Shown piece by piece: positions 1-8,663 of a stretch of DNA of 8,663 nt. Made by a program: the position numbers and the translations under genes. Numbering within the stretch: the stretch's first letter is position 1; the number at the start of each line of letters is the position of its first letter. The notes beneath the pieces were generated by a model. That model worked only from the letters and a program-made list of their open reading frames with translations, was not told the origin of the DNA and made no database searches. The DNA lies in the IMG/VR virus record IMGVR_UViG_2690316149_000023; one strand, given 5' to 3'. The DNA is from a virus. Its lineage: Duplodnaviria > Heunggongvirae > Uroviricota > Caudoviricetes.

Positions 1-19
1 ATGGCGCTCATAAATCTGG

Positions 20-25
20 TATACT
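20..25 (+). promoter_or_regulatory. candidate -10 hexamer (TATACT) of the ssrA promoter; -35 would lie at or beyond the window start
   Basis: TATACT sits about 14 nt upstream of the mature tmRNA 5' end (GGGGCUGAUUC at 40). Position relative to the RNA gene is the only support. Confidence 0.4.
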
Positions 26-39
26 TACCTTTACACATT

Positions 40-402
40 GGGGCTGATTCTGGATTCGACGGGATTTGCGAAACCCAAGGTGCATGCCGAGGGGCGGTTG
101 GCCTCGTAAAAAGCCGCAAAAAATAGTCGCAAACGACGAAAACTACGCTTTAGCAGCTTAATAACCTGCTTAGAGCCCTCTCTCCCTAGCCTCCGCTCTT
201 AGGACGGGGATCAAGAGAGGTCAAACCCAAAAGAGATCGCGTGGAAGCCCTGCCTGGGGTTGAAGCGTTAAAACTTAATCAGGCTAGTTTGTTAGTGGCG
301 TGTCCGTCCGCAGCTGGCAAGCGAATGTAAAGACTGACTAAGCATGTAGTACCGAGGATGTAGGAATTTCGGACGCGGGTTCAACTCCCGCCAGCTCCAC
401 CA
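40..402 (+). ncRNA. ssrA: tmRNA (SsrA, 10Sa RNA), complete 363-nt mature form
   Basis: Begins GGGGCTGATTCTGGATTCGACGGG and ends the tRNA-like domain with GGTTCAACTCCCGCCAGCTCCACCA. The internal tag reading frame at 129..161 (GCA AAC GAC GAA AAC TAC GCT TTA GCA GCT TAA) encodes ANDENYALAA-stop, the canonical enterobacterial degradation tag. Recognised from memory of the E. coli sequence. Confidence 0.95.
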
Positions 403-530
403 ATCATGATTGGACGGTGTAAGGACAACACCAATAAAAACAGGAAGTTAGCAGTCTCAGCAGGACACCGACCAGACGGTGAGGAGACAAAAAAGGATAC
501 GCAAAGGAGCCGCGGCTCCCAAGTGACATG

Positions 531-561
531 AAAGCCCGCTAATGCGGGCTTTTTCGTTTTT
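531..561 (+). terminator. rho-independent terminator-like hairpin (GCCCGC-taat-GCGGGC followed by a T-run)
   Basis: Perfect 6-bp GC-rich stem (AAAGCCCGC / GCGGGCTTT) with a 4-nt loop, followed by TTTTTCGTTTTTATT on the plus strand. Lies about 130 nt downstream of the tmRNA CCA end. Confidence 0.6.
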
Positions 562-948
562 ATTACCTGCGGCAACACGCTATCCCTCTTCGTGTTATGG
601 GATGGAATTCCTTTTTACCTTCATTGGTACTTTCGGATACCAGATAACACCATTACCTATTTGACCAATGGCAGCGAAGCTGGTTTAAATAACCTCTCTA
701 GCAAACAAGTACAACTAAGTTAAGCGGCCAAAAAAAATCGCAATAAAACGTGCAATTACATTAACTAAGTAGGACGTTTTTAACACAAAAACATCGATTA
801 AAAAACGCACTGTGACAAACACTGAAAAAACAAGCATCACACACATTTTTTATTCATGTTTATCAATATGTTAAAATATAACCTTACTAATCTTGAACTC
901 ATCATCCGCTAATGTAGTTATATTATAAATAGCGCAGTGTGACACTCA

Positions 949-2457
949 ATGAAACCATCCATAGAACAACTTCTACATATCTACGGGCCGATGTCCTCAT
1001 CTGCCTTAAGAGAAAAACTGATAGCCAATGGCCTAACAGAAGTTAACGCCAGACAGCGAATCTCCCGCGTTGGAGGTGATGTTCAACGTTTTACTCATTT
1101 TTCTTTGCCCAAAAATGAAGCATTTCTCTATCTGACAAAGGACTATAACTCTCGTCGATATTGGATTGCATTGCTTGAAAGTCATGTAAATGCAAGAACA
1201 GTCTATGCTCACACCTTTTTCGCTTTCCACCCTTATCAAGGGGCGATCCCGACATATCTTTTTAGCAAGGTTTCAGGGAGTCCGGACAAACTGAAGGGAC
1301 ACATTGCGTCAAGCCGTCTTGAAGCGCAATTGCTTAAAGGTTCAGTTCTGCGTAGGGAAGTTGATGTCGTTTTGGGGGATTGTCTTGTTACTTACATAAA
1401 TAATATTAACGGGGTAACGGATACCCAACATGTCCGAAACCAATTGCTGGTTGAAGATATTCTCATTAAAGGTGTAGCTGACTGGATTAAACACAATAGC
1501 CTTGGCAGCTTTAATAAGGTCCAAGTCCGTAACTCTCAGAATATGCCTTCATTTAGCCATCACCATTGGGACATATGTGCTCCGTCATATATTATGCCTT
1601 TAGCAACAGTACAAAAAGGTGAAATGAGTAATGGCTTCATTGTTGCAGATGTCATATACAATGATTTAGATAGCAAAAGCATCCAAACCTATCTCACGAA
1701 AGTACAGCGATGCAGAAATATGCGAAATACTCGCCCGTTTCTAGCTATGCTGATTGCAGAACGTTTTGATCCAGAAGCCTTTCGCCTTGCGAAACAAGCT
1801 GGTGTAATGGCTACAACAGTATCTAACCTACTTGGTCAAGACATTTCAGCACTACTGTCCAGTTTATTAAATACTCTTAATCGTGCCAGTGCTATTGCGG
1901 CAGCAAACCCAGAAAAAATCAACGAACTATTTAAAGGACTTACGAGGATTGAAGGCGCCGCAATCAATATAAGAGGCGTAATGTTTGAAATGTTAGTTGG
2001 TCACATCGTACTGAAAACCCAAAATGTCAGCACTGTGGACTTGAATAAACAAATCAGTACCGAGGCAGGTAAGGCTGAAATAGATGTGATTGGTTTTAGA
2101 GGCGAAGCAGAAATTAAGTGCTACGAATGTAAAGGCTATGAAGTTAAGCGACTAATTTCAGTCGAAATGATCGAAAAGTGGCTCGAACGAGTTCAACGCA
2201 TCAGAAAATTCTACAGTCAGATTCATGTGTACCGTGACCGAAAAATGACTTTTTCATTCTGGACCTCATCAGATTTTGAACCTGAAGCACTTGAGCTGCT
2301 GCTTCATCAGAAGCAAAGAAATACAAAAATATCATTAGACTGGAAAAATGGACGTGACATTCTTTCCATTGTTAAGGAAGACAATCTGAAATCAATTGCA
2401 GATGTTCTTCAGGAACATTATCTTCGACACCCACTGGCTCCTGATGCAGATATGTAA
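949..2457 (+). CDS. hypothetical protein, 502 aa, no recognisable family; possible N-terminal winged-helix-like region and a C-terminal PD-(D/E)xK-like motif (tentative)
   Basis: Longest ORF in the window, with no competing ORF on either strand. Codon usage is AT-rich (about 37-40% GC on sampled lines, against about 52% in the tail-fibre part). It follows about 350 bp of very AT-rich upstream sequence. Start codon at 949 has only a weak Shine-Dalgarno; an alternative start is Met15 at 991. Tentative motif: D379 ... E388-I-K390 / E393-C-K395 inside EIDVIGFRGEAEIKCYECKG (nt 2077..2133). Confidence 0.8.
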   Translation: MKPSIEQLLHIYGPMSSSALREKLIANGLTEVNARQRISRVGGDVQRFTHFSLPKNEAFLYLTKDYNSRRYWIALLESHVNARTVYAHTFFAFHPYQGAIPTYLFSKVSGSPDKLKGHIASSRLEAQLLKGSVLRREVDVVLGDCLVTYINNINGVTDTQHVRNQLLVEDILIKGVADWIKHNSLGSFNKVQVRNSQNMPSFSHHHWDICAPSYIMPLATVQKGEMSNGFIVADVIYNDLDSKSIQTYLTKVQRCRNMRNTRPFLAMLIAERFDPEAFRLAKQAGVMATTVSNLLGQDISALLSSLLNTLNRASAIAAANPEKINELFKGLTRIEGAAINIRGVMFEMLVGHIVLKTQNVSTVDLNKQISTEAGKAEIDVIGFRGEAEIKCYECKGYEVKRLISVEMIEKWLERVQRIRKFYSQIHVYRDRKMTFSFWTSSDFEPEALELLLHQKQRNTKISLDWKNGRDILSIVKEDNLKSIADVLQEHYLRHPLAPDADM

Positions 2458-2686
2458 TGTGGATAAGCCTAAGGTTTATTTAGCTGCCTTTGATGCTGTC
2501 TATTACCGAATTGTGATGGTCTGCCCAGTACAAAAATATCATTCTGGGCGAATTGATTTAGAGGGTTCACCGGCTCTAAGAGAGCCGATATATGGCTAGT
2601 GTCTGAGTTCCCAAGAGCTCGACAGTTTGGGCTGTAAAGTTGTGCTGTCTGCCAGCATCAATCTTTACCGGTGGCCTGCATCATGT

Positions 2687-3241
2687 CTAATCCCTGCCTA
2701 CAGGAAATTTTCGGTATAGTGTTGACACTCCTACATCATAAATTAATGCTACGCGCTGACGCGTTTCTCCTGCAGCGATTAGTCTCCCTGCCTGCGCCCA
2801 CTGCTCATCCGTTAGTTTTGGCTTACGTCCACCAATTCGTCCCTGTGCGCGAGCAGCTTCCAGTCCAGCTTTTGTTCGTTCAACAATCAGTTCACGCTCC
2901 ATTTCAGCCAGGGCACCCATCACATGAAAGAAAAAGCGCCCCATTGGGGTACTAGTATCAATTGAATCCGTCAGACTACGAAAGTTGATGCCTCGTTCGC
3001 GCAACTCCTCAACCAGAATGACCAGATGCCGCATACTACGCCCCAGCCGATCCAGCTTCCAGACAACCAGAGTGTCACCTGCCGATAATGTCCTGAGCAG
3101 TTTTTTCAGTCCAGGCCTTTCGGACTTTGTACCGCTTATCTTGTCTTCAAAAATCAGCTCGCATCCTGCACAGTTCAGCGCATTACGTTGTAGATCTGTG
3201 TTCTGGTCATTTGTTGACACACGTACATAGCCAATAAGCAT
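2687..3241 (-). CDS. pin: site-specific DNA invertase, small serine recombinase of the Gin/Pin/Hin/Cin family (184 aa)
   Basis: N-terminus MLIGYVRVSTNDQNTDLQ with the catalytic Ser in the VRVSTNDQ motif; conserved core LVVWKLDRLGRSMRHL and FFHVMGALAEMERELIVERT; C-terminal HTH region (ALIYDVGVSTLYRKF). Start at 3241 is preferred over the ORF-track start at 3277 because an AGGGAG Shine-Dalgarno sits 7 nt upstream of the 3241 ATG and family N-termini begin MLIGY. The symbol is family-level only; I cannot tell pinE, pinR, gin or cin apart from memory. Confidence 0.93.
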   Translation of the reverse strand: MLIGYVRVSTNDQNTDLQRNALNCAGCELIFEDKISGTKSERPGLKKLLRTLSAGDTLVVWKLDRLGRSMRHLVILVEELRERGINFRSLTDSIDTSTPMGRFFFHVMGALAEMERELIVERTKAGLEAARAQGRIGGRKPKLTDEQWAQAGRLIAAGETRQRVALIYDVGVSTLYRKFPVGRD

Positions 3242-3267
3242 GGTAGATCTCCCTGACAAAAGCAGGA

Positions 3268-6135
<2,868 letters not shown>

Positions 6136-6138
6136 TCC

Positions 6139-6442
6139 ATGCATCGTATAGACACGAAAACCGCGCAGAAGGATAAGTTCGGCGCGGGTAAGAACGGTTT
6201 TACCCGTGGTAACCCCCAGACCGGCACACCTGCCACCGATCTGGATGATGACTACTTTGACATGTTGCAGGAAGAACTCTGCAGCGTGGTGGAGGCATCC
6301 GGTGCCAGCCTGGAGAAGGGGCGGCATGACCAGCTGCTTACCGCGCTTCGTGCGCTGCTGTTAAGCCGCAAGAATCCGTTTGGCGATATCAAATCTGATG
6401 GCACGGTGAAAACGGCTCTCGAAAACCTTGGTTTGGGAGAAG
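6139..6442. repeat. inverted repeat arm A (304 bp): fibre constant region plus crossover site
   Basis: Reverse complement of 8360..8663; identity checked at both ends and through identical N-terminal protein sequence. The true extent may be longer, since the partner arm runs off the window edge. Confidence 0.85.
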
Positions 6443-6900
6443 GTTCGGCATTACCCGTTGGTGTGCCTGTTCCGTGGCCTTCCGCCACTCCGCCAACGGG
6501 GTGGCTAAAATGTAACGGAGCAGTATTTTCTTCTGAAAAGTACCCAAATCTGGCAAAGGCTTACCCAACATTAAAATTACCAGATTTACGCGGTGAATTT
6601 ATTCGTGGCTGGGATGATGGGCGCGGGATTGACTCTGGTCGTAACTTATTATCTGCACAGAATGATGCAATTCAGAATATTGTTGGTTCTTTTGGGCGTA
6701 CCCAGCTTTTTAGAGACGTACTTAGTTCAGGGCCATTTAGTCAACATGGGCAAGTATTATCTACAGGTCTAAAGGAAGCCGAAATTATTGAGGGTTATGG
6801 CGCTTATAACTGGACATTCGACGCATCTCGCTCAGTTCGCACAGCATCTGAAACCCGCTCCCGTAACATCGCCTTTAATTATATTGTGAGGGCTGCATGA
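6139..6900 (+). CDS. tail-fibre protein (constant N-terminal region Sc fused to variable C-terminal receptor-binding region Sv1), 253 aa
   Basis: The N-terminal 101 aa ([17 protein letters not shown] ... [23 protein letters not shown] ...) resemble the conserved baseplate-attachment N-terminus of Mu S / e14 Stf-type fibres. The C-terminus carries the PWP...GWLKCNG...[17 protein letters not shown] motif. The reading frame runs straight through crossover site 2, and the stop overlaps the start of the downstream assembly gene (ATGA). Confidence 0.9.
6416..6441. other. invertase crossover site 2 (26 bp), inside the fibre gene at the constant/variable junction; direct orientation relative to site 1
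   Basis: CTCTCGAAAACC-TT-GGTTTGGGAGAA fits the Gin-family site pattern. The inner half is identical to site 1 and the whole site is identical (as reverse complement) to site 3. Confidence 0.8.
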
Positions 6901-7458
6901 TAAGTAAAGCTGTATTAAATAATGAACTCATCGCCACAAAGGCCGGAGACATTACCGTTTATAATTATGATGGTGAAACACGGGAATATATTTCCACATC
7001 AACTGAATATCTTGCTGTGGGTGTTGGTATCCCGGCATGTTCCTGTTTAGATGCTCCTGGCTCATATAAAGCTGGTTATGCAATTTGCCGTTCTGCAGAT
7101 TTTAACTCATGGGAATATGTGCCAGACCATCGCGGTGAAATCGTCTATAGCACCGAAACAGGAGAATCAAAAGAAATCACAGTTCCGGGTGATTACCCTG
7201 AAAATACAACCACTATCGCCCCGTTAACGTCATACGATAAATGGGATGGTGAGAAATGGGTGACCGATACTGAGGCACAGCATAACGCCGCAGTAGACGC
7301 GGCAGAAGTACGGCGCCAGTCACTGATTGATGCTGCTATGGCTTCCATTAGTCTGATTCAGCTGAAATTGCAGGCCGGGCGGAAGCTGACGCAGGCAGAA
7401 ACAACCCGGCTTAACGCTGTGCTGGATTACATTGACGCGGTGACTGCAACAGATACCA
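6428..7458. repeat. direct repeat copy B (1,031 bp), apparently identical to 3308..4338
   Basis: See copy A. Confidence 0.85.
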
Positions 7459-7502
7459 GCACCGCGCCGGATGTCATCTGGCCTGAACTACCGGAGGCGT
7501 AG
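6897..7502 (+). CDS. tail-fibre assembly protein (chaperone) U1, 201 aa
   Basis: Start is coupled to the fibre gene stop. C-terminal region ([51 protein letters not shown]) is typical of Tfa / gpU / gpG-family chaperones. The 3' end overlaps the convergent U2 gene, as in Mu G and P1 C segments. Confidence 0.9.
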
Positions 7503-7917
7503 GCCATTCAATATCTGGAGCACTGGAGGTATCAACCAGTTCCAGTGCGTCCAGATAATCCAGCCATAAATTATATTGTTCCAGCTCGTAACCTTTCAGA
7601 CGACCAATAGCAGCTTTGCCAGGCCACTGATGGGTATTGATGTAGGTATTGACTTCTGAAACCAAAGATATCTTTTTCATTTCAGCCGCCAGCATCTCAT
7701 CCTCTTTTGAAGGCGGCGGGGAATTAATCCATATTGGCCGTCCTGAACTGTCAGCGCCAATTTCTTTCCCTTCTGGATGCAGCCCAAGAAATTGCTCATA
7801 TGTTTCTCTGGTAATTTCAATAACATCATCAGGAAGCGTTCCCGCATCCTCATATTCTGGAAACAATTCTTGCAGATAAAAACTTTTACTTGCGGGTGAA
7901 AAGAATACTGAGTTCAT
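7474..7917 (-). CDS. tail-fibre assembly protein (chaperone) U2, 147 aa, partner of the alternative fibre tail Sv2
   Basis: Lies 2 nt downstream of the minus-strand fibre gene. The C-terminus ([26 protein letters not shown]) shows the same Tfa-type signature as U1. Confidence 0.85.
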   Translation of the reverse strand: MNSVFFSPASKSFYLQELFPEYEDAGTLPDDVIEITRETYEQFLGLHPEGKEIGADSSGRPIWINSPPPSKEDEMLAAEMKKISLVSEVNTYINTHQWPGKAAIGRLKGYELEQYNLWLDYLDALELVDTSSAPDIEWPTPPVVQAR

Positions 7918-7919
7918 TC

Positions 7920-8663
7920 TTACCGTCCAATGATTAACGCTGAGACGCTGGTATCTGAAGGAAAGGCTGCATTCAGTGGTTTGTCGACTTTGAACACAAT
8001 CGTATTATTCCCCCTGACAGCGGCAAAAGAACAAACCGCCGTCGCGTATGAACCTGTAATATTACTGGATACACCACCATAAGCTGTTGTTGATACCAGA
8101 GGGATAACGCCCAGCACCTTATTAGGAAATACAAAGGGCAATGTGGCTGTGGCAATATAAGACTTATTAGAACCTGTAATGGCATAAGCATTATCAGTCA
8201 TTCCATTCATCGCCACTGGACCGCTTATACTTACAGTAACCATCTGAATGATTAGCCCGTCAGGTTGACGAATCACAAAATTTCCATTGCCACCAGTAAC
8301 CGTCCAGAAAGACATATCAGGGATTTGGTTTTCCCCGTTGCCCACATTTCGTTTTGCCGCTTCTCCCAAACCAAGGTTTTCGAGAGCCGTTTTCACCGTG
8401 CCATCAGATTTGATATCGCCAAACGGATTCTTGCGGCTTAACAGCAGCGCACGAAGCGCGGTAAGCAGCTGGTCATGCCGCCCCTTCTCCAGGCTGGCAC
8501 CGGATGCCTCCACCACGCTGCAGAGTTCTTCCTGCAACATGTCAAAGTAGTCATCATCCAGATCGGTGGCAGGTGTGCCGGTCTGGGGGTTACCACGGGT
8601 AAAACCGTTCTTACCCGCGCCGAACTTATCCTTCTGCGCGGTTTTCGTGTCTATACGATGCAT
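7920..8663 (-). CDS. tail-fibre protein, second full-length copy (same constant N-terminus Sc, alternative variable C-terminus Sv2), 247 aa
   Basis: The first 101 codons are nucleotide-identical (as an inverted repeat) to 6139..6441. After the crossover site the sequence switches to a different Gly/Ser/Thr/Asn/Val-rich C-terminal domain ([35 protein letters not shown] ...). The window ends exactly at its start codon, so upstream context is not visible. Confidence 0.9.
8360..8663. repeat. inverted repeat arm B (304 bp visible, window-limited)
   Basis: See arm A. Confidence 0.85.
8361..8386. other. invertase crossover site 3 (26 bp), inverted orientation relative to sites 1 and 2
   Basis: TTCTCCCAAACCAAGGTTTTCGAGAG is the exact reverse complement of site 2. 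Confidence 0.8.

Follow-up and report, generated by a model that had tools for sequence, protein, structure and literature searches.

A third crossover site and a second constant region at an e14-type Pin tail-fibre switch of Escherichia coli: a probable case of duplication followed by inversion

In the G segment/Gin system of phage Mu and the C segment/Cin system of phage P1, a serine invertase flips two alternative fibre C-termini and their chaperone genes behind one constant part. The Min system of plasmid p15B has six sites between its cassettes and one constant part, and nested inversions give rise to several isomers. Closer to the locus described here is the e14 P segment/PinE switch of E. 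coli K-12 (ymfQ-stfP-tfaP / tfaE-stfE-pinE). For the e14-type locus, a function was reported in 2025 for the product of the pin-side ORF with a short ATG leader, and StfE2 of e14, made by PinQ-driven inversion, was reported to block phage adsorption (PMC12529663). For Hin and Gin, a Fis-dependent recombinational enhancer is described within the invertase gene, towards its 5' end (PMC3798978).

We analysed 8,663 nucleotides of IMG/VR virus record IMGVR_UViG_2690316149_000023; this whole stretch is called the window below, and compared sequences carry L numbers. The window is best read as a Pin tail-fibre switch of the e14 type, carried at ssrA of E. coli by a decayed Mu-like prophage remnant devoid of other tail genes (Table 1). 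Gene order and gene families were the same as in e14, and the e14 crossover repeat TTGGTTTGGGAGAAGG (PMC12529663) was present in identical form. Other points of likeness were the short constant N-terminus with alternative C-termini and the short-leader ORF in the variable part beside pin. The switch segment measured about 1.9 kb, compared to 1,797 bp in e14. Unlike e14, with its single constant region (Sc), the window carries three crossover sites and two copies of Sc, and its module occupies ssrA within a remnant that an insertion sequence (IS) has cut. Mu and P1 differ further, as they are functional phages with one, much longer Sc and two sites, whereas the extra Sc of the window would be a by-product of duplication. 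With the Min system the window has in common the presence of more than two crossover sites, but its third site would be a duplicated Sc-side site.

Table 1. Features of the window (positions are those of the whole stretch)
Feature	Position	Strand	Remarks
ssrA (tmRNA)	40..402	+	attachment locus of the prophage remnant; ARAGORN, tag ANDENYALAA
X	949..2457	+	502-aa protein between ssrA and pin; no Pfam or NCBIfam family
pin, Din-family serine DNA invertase	2687..3241	-	184 aa as annotated in relatives; ORF to 3277
Extra silent Sv1 copy	3268..3780	+	short-leader ORF beside pin, 170 aa; Collar domain, E 2e-15
Crossover site ix1	3296..3321	+	outer half from the pin side; TT core at 3308-3309; inner half continues into Sv1
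5' 562 nt of tfa1	3777..4338	+	ended by the junction; identical to 6897-7458
Junction J	4328..4382		11-bp overlap, 42 bp to the IS tip, then 'AA'
Extra unit, 3,120 bp	4339..7458		removal gives back the canonical locus
IS3-family body without its own last 65 bp	4383..5575	-	orfA 5192-5539; orfB 4365-5072, C-terminus altered
ymfQ (Mu gp48-like baseplate gene)	5576..6135	+	without first 7 codons and all upstream; Phage_Mu_Gp48, E 1e-26
Tail-fibre gene Sc+Sv1	6139..6900	+	253 aa, ATG start
Crossover site ix2	6416..6441	+	outer half from the Sc side; core at 6428-6429; same orientation as ix1
tfa1, complete chaperone gene for Sv1	6897..7502	+	Caudo_TAP, E 6e-32
tfa2, chaperone gene for Sv2	7474..7917	-	Caudo_TAP, E 6e-27
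Tail-fibre gene Sc+Sv2	7920..8663	-	247 aa, ATG start
Crossover site ix3	8361..8386	-	outer half from the Sc side; core at 8373-8374; orientation opposite to ix1 and ix2

The pin-side flank was conventional. The position of ssrA relative to neighbouring genes was the same in L022 and L023. Protein X gave a weak LmuA-like match alone (E 0.007), and many E. coli contigs had an identical protein at this place. The invertase, annotated as pinE in relatives, contained the Resolvase (PF00239, E 1e-51) and HTH_7 (PF02796, E 3e-14) domains; its N-terminus, MLIGYVRVSTNDQ, carried the YVRVST motif.

A sequence-only reading of the window had described two full-length fibre genes on opposite strands with identical N-termini, each provided with a start codon and a downstream chaperone gene, and an inverted repeat of 304 bp that carried the whole constant region and reached the window edge. 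All of this was borne out. The two fibre proteins had exactly 101 N-terminal residues in common, up to ...ENLGLGE, and diverged after that. The repeat (arms 6139-6442 and 8360-8663, 304 nt, 100% complementary, 1,917 nt between them; repeat finder and self-BLAST) consisted of Sc and the inner part of the crossover site, and chance does not account for a perfect inverted repeat of this length within 8.7 kb. The window begins with the ATG of a 41-aa ORF inside ssrA, called as a gene in relatives, and ends with the ATG of the minus-strand fibre gene. As the window was apparently cut at called-gene boundaries, its edge is uninformative on where the repeat stops. Exact copies of the 253-aa and 247-aa proteins were found in 75 and 146 blocks of the collection, respectively, and for each protein ten of ten among the matches listed had the canonical single-Sc layout. 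The two proteins are the two normal flip products of the canonical switch in many E. coli. That known systems hold one Sc and express one tail at a time, as had also been stated, was right for the single Sc of canonical relatives, but the pin-side variable part has a short ORF of its own.

The sequence-only reading had overlooked a third crossover site, the silent copy of Sv1 with the 5' part of its chaperone gene, an IS3-family element, and the fact that the 'baseplate' gene upstream of the plus-strand fibre gene is cut by this IS. The sequence of ix1 was TTTTCATAAACG TT GGTTTGGGAGAA, which includes the e14 repeat, and that of ix2 was CTCTCGAAAACC TT GGTTTGGGAGAA; the reverse complement of ix3 was identical to ix2, and ix1 had the core and the inner half in common with both. 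Each of the three sites was recombinant exactly at the TT core, giving the combinations pin|Sv1, Sc|Sv1 and Sc|Sv2, and the outer halves are those expected under the duplication model given below. In all relatives a single Sc lay opposite the invertase, as is typical of a Din-family switch, whereas in the window Sc stood on both sides of segment 6442-8360 and pin was 3.1 kb away, past the third site. The canonical form of the remnant still flips, because the near-identical 5.15-Mb genomes L005 and L030, with 100% identical flanks, differed solely by inversion of a 1,957-bp segment. Both flip states were also found among strains.

A second repeat, in direct orientation, linked the two parts of the window: 3308-4338 and 6428-7458 were 100% identical over 1,031 bp, with a spacing of 3,120. 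The sole mismatch in the BLAST alignment of these copies, at 3307/6427, fell on the final base of the static outer half-site. The repeat covers the silent Sv1 copy (3308-3780 identical to 6428-6900) and the 5' fragment of tfa1, whose ORF continues along the antisense strand of the IS to 4727, with Caudo_TAP over residues 79-187 only. When 4339-7458 was deleted, the canonical layout appeared, i.e. pin, switch segment, single Sc, truncated ymfQ and IS. The parent reconstructed in this way (window minus 4339-7458, plus an appended mirror of 5400-6138) aligned to L005, L009 and L010 in one ungapped HSP of 3,458 bp at 99.5%, with all 17 mismatches in pin, and likewise matched two complete genomes. 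Window positions 4383-8379 matched E. coli 602687 in 3,996 of 3,997 bases, the same joint between IS and ymfQ included.

We consider it somewhat better than an even chance that the window reflects a recent, one-off tandem duplication followed by one Pin inversion between outer sites, in a decayed E. coli prophage remnant. The normal layout would have been pin, crossover site, [Sv1 tfa1 / tfa2 Sv2], crossover site, Sc and ymfQ, with ymfQ cut off by the IS3-family element in the lineage of the window. The duplicated stretch of 3,120 bp would comprise IS, truncated ymfQ, Sc, crossover site, Sv1 and the first 562 nt of tfa1, and its duplication would have given birth to the third crossover site. 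An ordinary Pin inversion between the outermost sites would then lead to the isomer seen in the window, with a 1.9-kb segment flanked by Sc on both sides. The model predicts that the sequence beyond 8663 would run through the reverse complement of 6138 to 4383, then GAAGAGTCAGAG, the 53-bp IS end AACAGATACC...CCACTACA, and the flank. The order of these events, the mechanism that formed the junction and the mirrored copy of 4383-6138 beyond 8663 are what we infer. The extra unit could be deleted again by RecA (via the 1,031-bp direct repeats) or by Pin (via the two direct sites), and because of these routes to its loss the structure should be unstable. The 304-bp inverted repeat would also permit Pin-independent flipping. 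Further Pin isomers predicted for the locus are one with two direct Sc+Sv1 copies, one with the inner segment flipped, and the deletion product accompanied by a 3,120-bp circle.

The same features might have been produced by assembly. According to this explanation, the genome would be canonical and single-Sc, with both flip states in culture, and a wrong path would have reused Sc, Sv1 and tfa1, leaving the odd IS junction in a minority of molecules at most; we hold this to be unlikely, yet a real contender. The combinations pin|Sv1, Sc|Sv1 and Sc|Sv2 are three of the four types expected of a flipping population, all repeat copies were 100% identical, and the arrangement was absent from every other genome searched. 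Zero divergence of the copies is as compatible with an artefact as with a recent duplication, and assemblers are known to have trouble with the locus; both points weigh against the duplication model. Short-read contigs L019 and L020 stopped at or inside ix1. Circular 'plasmids' of 1.92 kb have been deposited that correspond to the switch segment, while the chromosomes of the same assemblies hold it too. On the other side, the artefact would require several haplotype switches, whereas one coherent two-step history covers the whole window, and a path across 1-kb repeats and an IS implies long-read support.

A further objection to an artefact comes from the junction J itself. The transposase of the IS was recognized by NF033516 (265.8 bits, cut-off 160), rve (E 5e-27) and HTH_Tnp_1, and the IS body was 100% identical to L001 7984-9176. 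In L001 the intact element is 1,258 bp long, with terminal inverted repeats TGTAGTGG... at both ends. In the window, the orfB-side end was inverted and 12 bp were missing, which leaves the element without proper terminal inverted repeats (TG...CA); this copy is defective. No target duplication flanked the L001 element: its flanks were CAC and TCC, which is consistent with an IS-adjacent deletion having taken away the remainder of the prophage. J begins with the overlap AACAGATACCA (4328-4338), an 11-mer that occurred in the window at 4328 and 7448 only, then follows the IS, wrongly oriented, over 4339-4380 up to its exact tip, and ends with 'AA' at 4381-4382; 4328-4380 is the reverse complement of L001 7919-7971. 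Canonical reads cannot build 4328-4382: one side offers only 11 bp of overlap, and the other has two untemplated bases. As the exact IS tip and the 11-bp overlap are unlike an assembler's k-mer overlap, J needs real molecules.

In the duplication model, the joint would leave tfa1 at the 11-bp microhomology, run along 53 sub-terminal bp of the IS to the exact tip and, after two extra bases, enter the IS body at a point 65 bp from that tip. Such a path resembles the outcome of an aberrant event of transposase action or strand switching. A published model proposes that IS elements of this copy-out/paste-in kind, to which the IS3 family belongs, switch strands at microhomologies while being copied out (bioRxiv 10.1101/2023.06.07.543989). 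In line with rearrangements of that sort, the window has one breakpoint at the exact IS tip and the other at an 11-bp microhomology in neighbouring DNA. The published model explains IS loss and deletion, whereas the window shows a duplication, a 53-bp inverted stuffer from the IS end and two untemplated bases. No step-by-step mechanism that we devised reproduced the 'AA' together with the stop at the IS tip, which also counts against duplication.

Five other routes were rejected: i) simple IS insertion into tfa1, as the joint, on its tfa1 side, falls 53 bp within the IS, away from its end; ii) nested insertion of an IS into an IS, as the 'AA' at the tip is unlike the expected target duplication and such a form was seen in no E. 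coli IS variant; iii) IS-mediated duplicative inversion, or recombination of two inverted IS copies, as tfa1 would be split while tfa1 and the switch segment are complete in the window; iv) a chimeric mosaic broken at ix1, as the last difference from pin of the 602687 type was at 3113, about 180 bp before ix1; and v) a fold-back read artefact at the IS tip, as the arms are asymmetric and the left one has 53 bp only.

We also looked for the same arrangement elsewhere. Among 5,426 complete E. coli genomes, a phage set and a plasmid set, no record had Sc on both sides. In a BLAST search of the 5,426 complete genomes the two halves of J were matched only separately, and exact pattern scans for both sides of J were negative in one genome per species and in JGI metagenomes. 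Exact look-ups of the junction-specific proteins (the 316-aa and 315-aa tfa1-IS fusions and the 235-aa altered orfB) returned no match. In a draft genome of near-identical lineage, one scaffold bore both the X-pin flank, with a single mismatch over 3,322 bp, and the IS-ymfQ-Sc unit, at 100%, in the same relative orientation, which counts in favour of duplication. The related scaffold L043 had other sequence between ix1 and the IS. With an N at its join and a corrupted third site, L043 neither confirms the window nor agrees with it in detail; it gives weak support at most, and the same two defects count in favour of an artefact.

The minus-strand Sc might instead derive from a second, possibly intact tail module past 8663, to which the IS-truncated remnant was joined either through a deletion next to the IS that ended in tfa1, or through crossover-site recombination of two prophages. 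In every other contig examined, the X-pin flank was accompanied by a complete Mu-like tail module with full-length ymfQ. Furthermore, in the complete genome CP148297.1 (L041) the crossover site connects the Sc of the remnant with the switch segment and invertase of a P2-like prophage, which shows that elements do exchange parts at such sites. We nevertheless regard two modules as improbable. Their joining would require 100% identity over 1,031 and 304 bp, while identity in these parts ranged from 84 to 100% among the different lineages compared; both module types usually reside at the same ssrA locus; and duplication needs no second element.

As for the tail genes, full Mu-like modules with baseplate, sheath and tube genes were found in L002-L004, L022 and L023. 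Upstream of 6139, the window contained only ymfQ minus seven codons (measured by alignment to the 194-aa full-length protein of L022) and then the IS, and relatives with the same IS-ymfQ junction were remnants without sheath, tube or baseplate genes. No match to a sigma-70-like promoter was detected between the IS and the plus-strand ATG. These observations bear on the proposal that both receptor-binding variants are made at once from an evolved two-Sc switch in which inversion only swaps promoters, a proposal to which we attach hardly any credence. Both full ORFs do coexist, intact and each with a chaperone gene, and cryptic-prophage fibre products can matter to the host (PMC12529663). Against a purpose-built system stand the 3,120-bp duplication, the junction with a damaged IS and the uniqueness of the arrangement, which was conserved in none of the other sequences searched. 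IS debris and truncated chaperone and ymfQ genes accompany the second Sc, the IS-truncated relatives have no other tail genes, and the direct repeats make for an unstable structure. Flipping between 6416-6441 and 8361-8386 would indeed only exchange the variable part behind each Sc.

A further reading, by analogy with StfE2, is that the form with three sites and two Sc copies is real, is kept in its lineage and gives the host a constant supply of fibre-derived products (both chimeras and the pin-side Sv1 ORF) that may block adsorption of other phages; the duplication would then amount to an adaptive escape from an either/or switch. We hold this combination to be very unlikely. The StfE2 work also concerns a chimeric cryptic-prophage fibre with the same crossover repeat; there, it is the pin-side chimera of a canonical two-site locus.

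The understanding of such switches is unchanged by this locus. The genes seen in the window cannot build a tail, and the plus-strand fibre copy has no native operon upstream, although both chimeric ORFs are encoded together. The practical value lies in a warning on assemblies at invertible segments: because these yield odd contigs, mini-'plasmids' and broken drafts, two-copy layouts at invertible loci need read support. If the duplication is true, an unusual IS3-family joint would be documented, with an exact tip, an 11-bp microhomology and an inverted 53-bp stuffer. Moreover, a duplication and one ordinary inversion would have made of a two-state switch a multi-isomer locus with both products encoded together.

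Two full-length tail-fibre ORFs lie on opposite strands of the window, as the sequence-only reading had correctly described. The stretches 6139-6442 and 8360-8663 form a perfect inverted repeat of 304 bp (repeat finder and self-BLAST), residues 1-101 of the 253-aa and 247-aa proteins are identical, and each ORF, composed of a constant part (Sc) and an alternative variable part (Sv1 or Sv2), is followed 3' by a Caudo_TAP chaperone gene (tfa1, tfa2). The left end of the window is the ATG of a small ORF within ssrA, listed by gene callers in relatives, and the right end is the ATG of the minus-strand fibre gene. The window seems to have been cut at gene boundaries, and the fact that the repeat reaches its edge is therefore uninformative.

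Features of the window, from left to right
Feature	Position	Strand	Remarks
ssrA	40-402		
X	949-2457	+	502 aa; no Pfam/NCBIfam family
pin		-	Pin invertase; Resolvase and HTH_7 domains
ix1	3296-3321		crossover site
Sv1 copy and first 562 nt of tfa1	3308-4338		
Junction	4328-4382		55 bp
IS3-family element	4383-5575	-	
ymfQ	between IS and Sc+Sv1		Mu gp48-like baseplate gene without first 7 codons
Sc+Sv1	6139-6900	+	fibre ORF, 253 aa
ix2	6416-6441		crossover site
tfa1			
tfa2		-	
Sc+Sv2	7920-8663	-	fibre ORF, 247 aa
ix3	8361-8386		crossover site

In E. coli 602687, the order is ypjA fragment, IS, truncated ymfQ, Sc+Sv1, tfa1, tfa2 (-), Sv2 (-), pinE, three small genes and ssrA, and 3,996 of the 3,997 bases of window 4383-8379 are identical to this locus. 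The IS of this strain is intact at 1,258 bp and shows no target duplication, its flanks being CAC and TCC (7909-7918 and 9177-9186 of that locus). On one side it adjoins the ypjA fragment and on the other it meets ymfQ at codon 8; a deletion next to the IS probably took away the remaining prophage. The 247-aa protein is listed in 146 blocks of a public collection and the 253-aa protein in 75; every place shown for them contains a single Sc, and pin lies across the segment from it. A single switch normally yields both proteins, one in each orientation. The 5.15-Mb assemblies GCA_977064935.1 (locus L005) and GCA_977067085.1 are near-identical, with 100% identity in the flanks, and at this locus only the orientation of a 1,957-bp segment sets them apart; this is direct evidence that the switch is still active in the IS-truncated remnant. 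Genomes with X adjoining pin likewise have a single Sc, and their Mu-like tail modules are complete. The X protein gave only a weak LmuA-like match, in its C-terminal part (E 0.007), and a stretch resembling D...E-x-K (EIDVIGFRGEAEIKCYECK) occurs in it; many E. coli encode an identical protein at the same place, with ssrA on one side and pin on the other, where a Mu-like prophage ends, and X may be a defence or moron gene.

When 4339-7458 was deleted (3,120 bp, the direct-repeat spacing) and the mirror image of 5400-6138 appended after 8663, the reconstructed locus aligned with L005 and the related loci L009 and L010 in a single ungapped HSP (3,458 bp, 99.5% identical), with 17 of 17 mismatches within pin; it also covered two complete genomes from pin through the IS. 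The window thus equals the canonical locus with one 3,120-bp unit added, in which the junction and the IS (65 bp short) are followed by truncated ymfQ, Sc, a crossover site, Sv1 and tfa1 (5' part). The sites ix2 and ix3 are perfect inverted copies of one another, while ix1 combines the pin-side outer half with the core and inner half common to both; the core agrees with TTGGTTTGGGAGAAGG, given in PMC12529663 as the repeat of the e14 P segment. Stretch 3308-4338 is identical to 6428-7458, and in the BLAST alignment only 3307/6427 differs, where the static outer half-site has its last base, so that all three sites break exactly at the crossover core.

This arrangement probably arose within a prophage remnant, by a recent duplication followed by an inversion. 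Starting from the 602687-type orientation, tandem duplication of the unit with its odd joint would produce two direct Sc-side sites and one pin-side site; if Pin then inverted the DNA once between the pin-side site and the outer one of the Sc-side sites, the result would be exactly the window, with ix1 as pin|Sv1, ix2 as Sc|Sv1 and ix3 as Sc|Sv2.

At the joint, tfa1 continues into the 11-mer AACAGATACCA, present within the window at 4328 and 7448 only and also found 53 bp from the orfB-side IS tip. It is followed by 42 bases up to the exact IS tip (...CCACTACA), oriented opposite to the following IS body, and by 'AA', for which neither partner provides a template; the IS body is entered 65 bp from its own end, with a loss of 12 bp. 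Cleavage by transposase is indicated by the exact tip, and annealing or a strand switch, of the kind proposed for copy-out IS elements (bioRxiv 10.1101/2023.06.07.543989), by the 11-bp overlap. No stepwise mechanism that we devised yielded either the 'AA' or the stop at the IS tip. Both sides of the joint were absent from complete E. coli genomes, species-representative genomes and JGI metagenome contigs. The truncated chaperone gene is extended by 129 codons through the IS antisense strand into a 316-aa fusion ORF (3777-4727, +), and orfB (4365-5072, -) has lost its last 18 residues and gained FVVVK; neither product is on record anywhere.

An assembly artefact is the less likely reading, even though the repeat copies show no differences, no second example of the arrangement was seen in the sequences searched, and assembly of this locus is known to be troublesome. 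Two short-read drafts with ssrA, X and pin (L019, L020) have contigs ending at or inside ix1, equivalent to window 3306 and 3296, as expected of a culture holding both orientations. The switch segment also appears alone as separate 1.92-kb 'plasmids' in assemblies whose chromosomes carry it too: circular CP148528.1, NZ_CP148539.1 and NZ_CP148540.1 (1,920-1,923 bp) are exactly the invertible segment (window 6440-8362, 99.4-99.5% identity), and chromosomes CP148531 and CP148535 belong to the same accession series. Assembly of a mixture of flip states is the most likely source of such 'plasmids'. However, the junction is impossible to make from canonical reads, and one two-step history accounts for the whole window. 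A draft scaffold from a near-identical lineage (L043; GCA_001283505.1, CYDP01000040.1) differs from window 1-3322 by 1 mismatch and matches 4591-6442 at 100%; IS, ymfQ and Sc (+) lie downstream of pin (-), and the switch segment runs into an inverted Sc. It lends weak support to a real arrangement. In its stretches 7463-8060 and 11790-11865, a differing third variable cassette (gp53-like, 136 aa) adjoins pin, the 5' part of a chaperone gene meets mid-IS sequence at a single N, and the crossover site ahead of the inverted Sc stub has given way to sixteen garbled bases.

Exchange between elements at crossover sites does occur, and an origin of the window from two modules thus keeps a small probability. 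In complete genome CP148297.1 (L041; 9577-11886), the crossover site links this IS, truncated ymfQ and Sc to the switch segment and invertase (188 aa) of a P2-like prophage. That segment differs from the one in the window: its Sc+Sv encodes 214 aa, its chaperone genes are others, and it has a gp53-like Sv. P2-like sheath and tube genes come next. The structure suggests that two prophages underwent site-specific exchange.

The proposal that both fibres could be made at once, with inversion swapping their promoters, is supported in part, as regards coding capacity, both chimeric ORFs being present together. Upstream of the plus-strand copy, however, lies only truncated ymfQ abutting the orfA-side IS end, a simple scan found no sigma-70-like site there, and IS-truncated relatives with the same IS-ymfQ joint contain no other tail genes. 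A purpose-built dual-expression system is therefore unsupported, and we regard its evolution as very improbable. The premise that only one variable part is expressed at a time in single-Sc systems also needs qualification: in e14-type loci the pin-side variable part has its own ATG-led ORF, as in the window (3268-3780, +), where the 'silent' part adjoining pin encodes 170 aa with a Collar domain, in a position corresponding to the stfE-type genes of e14. Gene callers give it as a 169-aa protein in canonical loci. StfE2, such a pin-side chimera, was reported to block T2 adsorption in a 2025 study (PMC12529663).

The window carries a structural variant, known from this one instance, of a familiar type of switch. 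Under duplication plus inversion, the inverted repeat would extend past 8663, to about 2.06 kb in all; a flip between ix2 and ix3 would exchange Sv1 and Sv2 between the two Sc copies, and one between ix1 and ix3 would create two direct Sc+Sv1 genes. The variant is predicted to be unstable: the unit would be lost by RecA recombination of the 1,031-bp direct repeats or by Pin recombination of ix1 with ix2.
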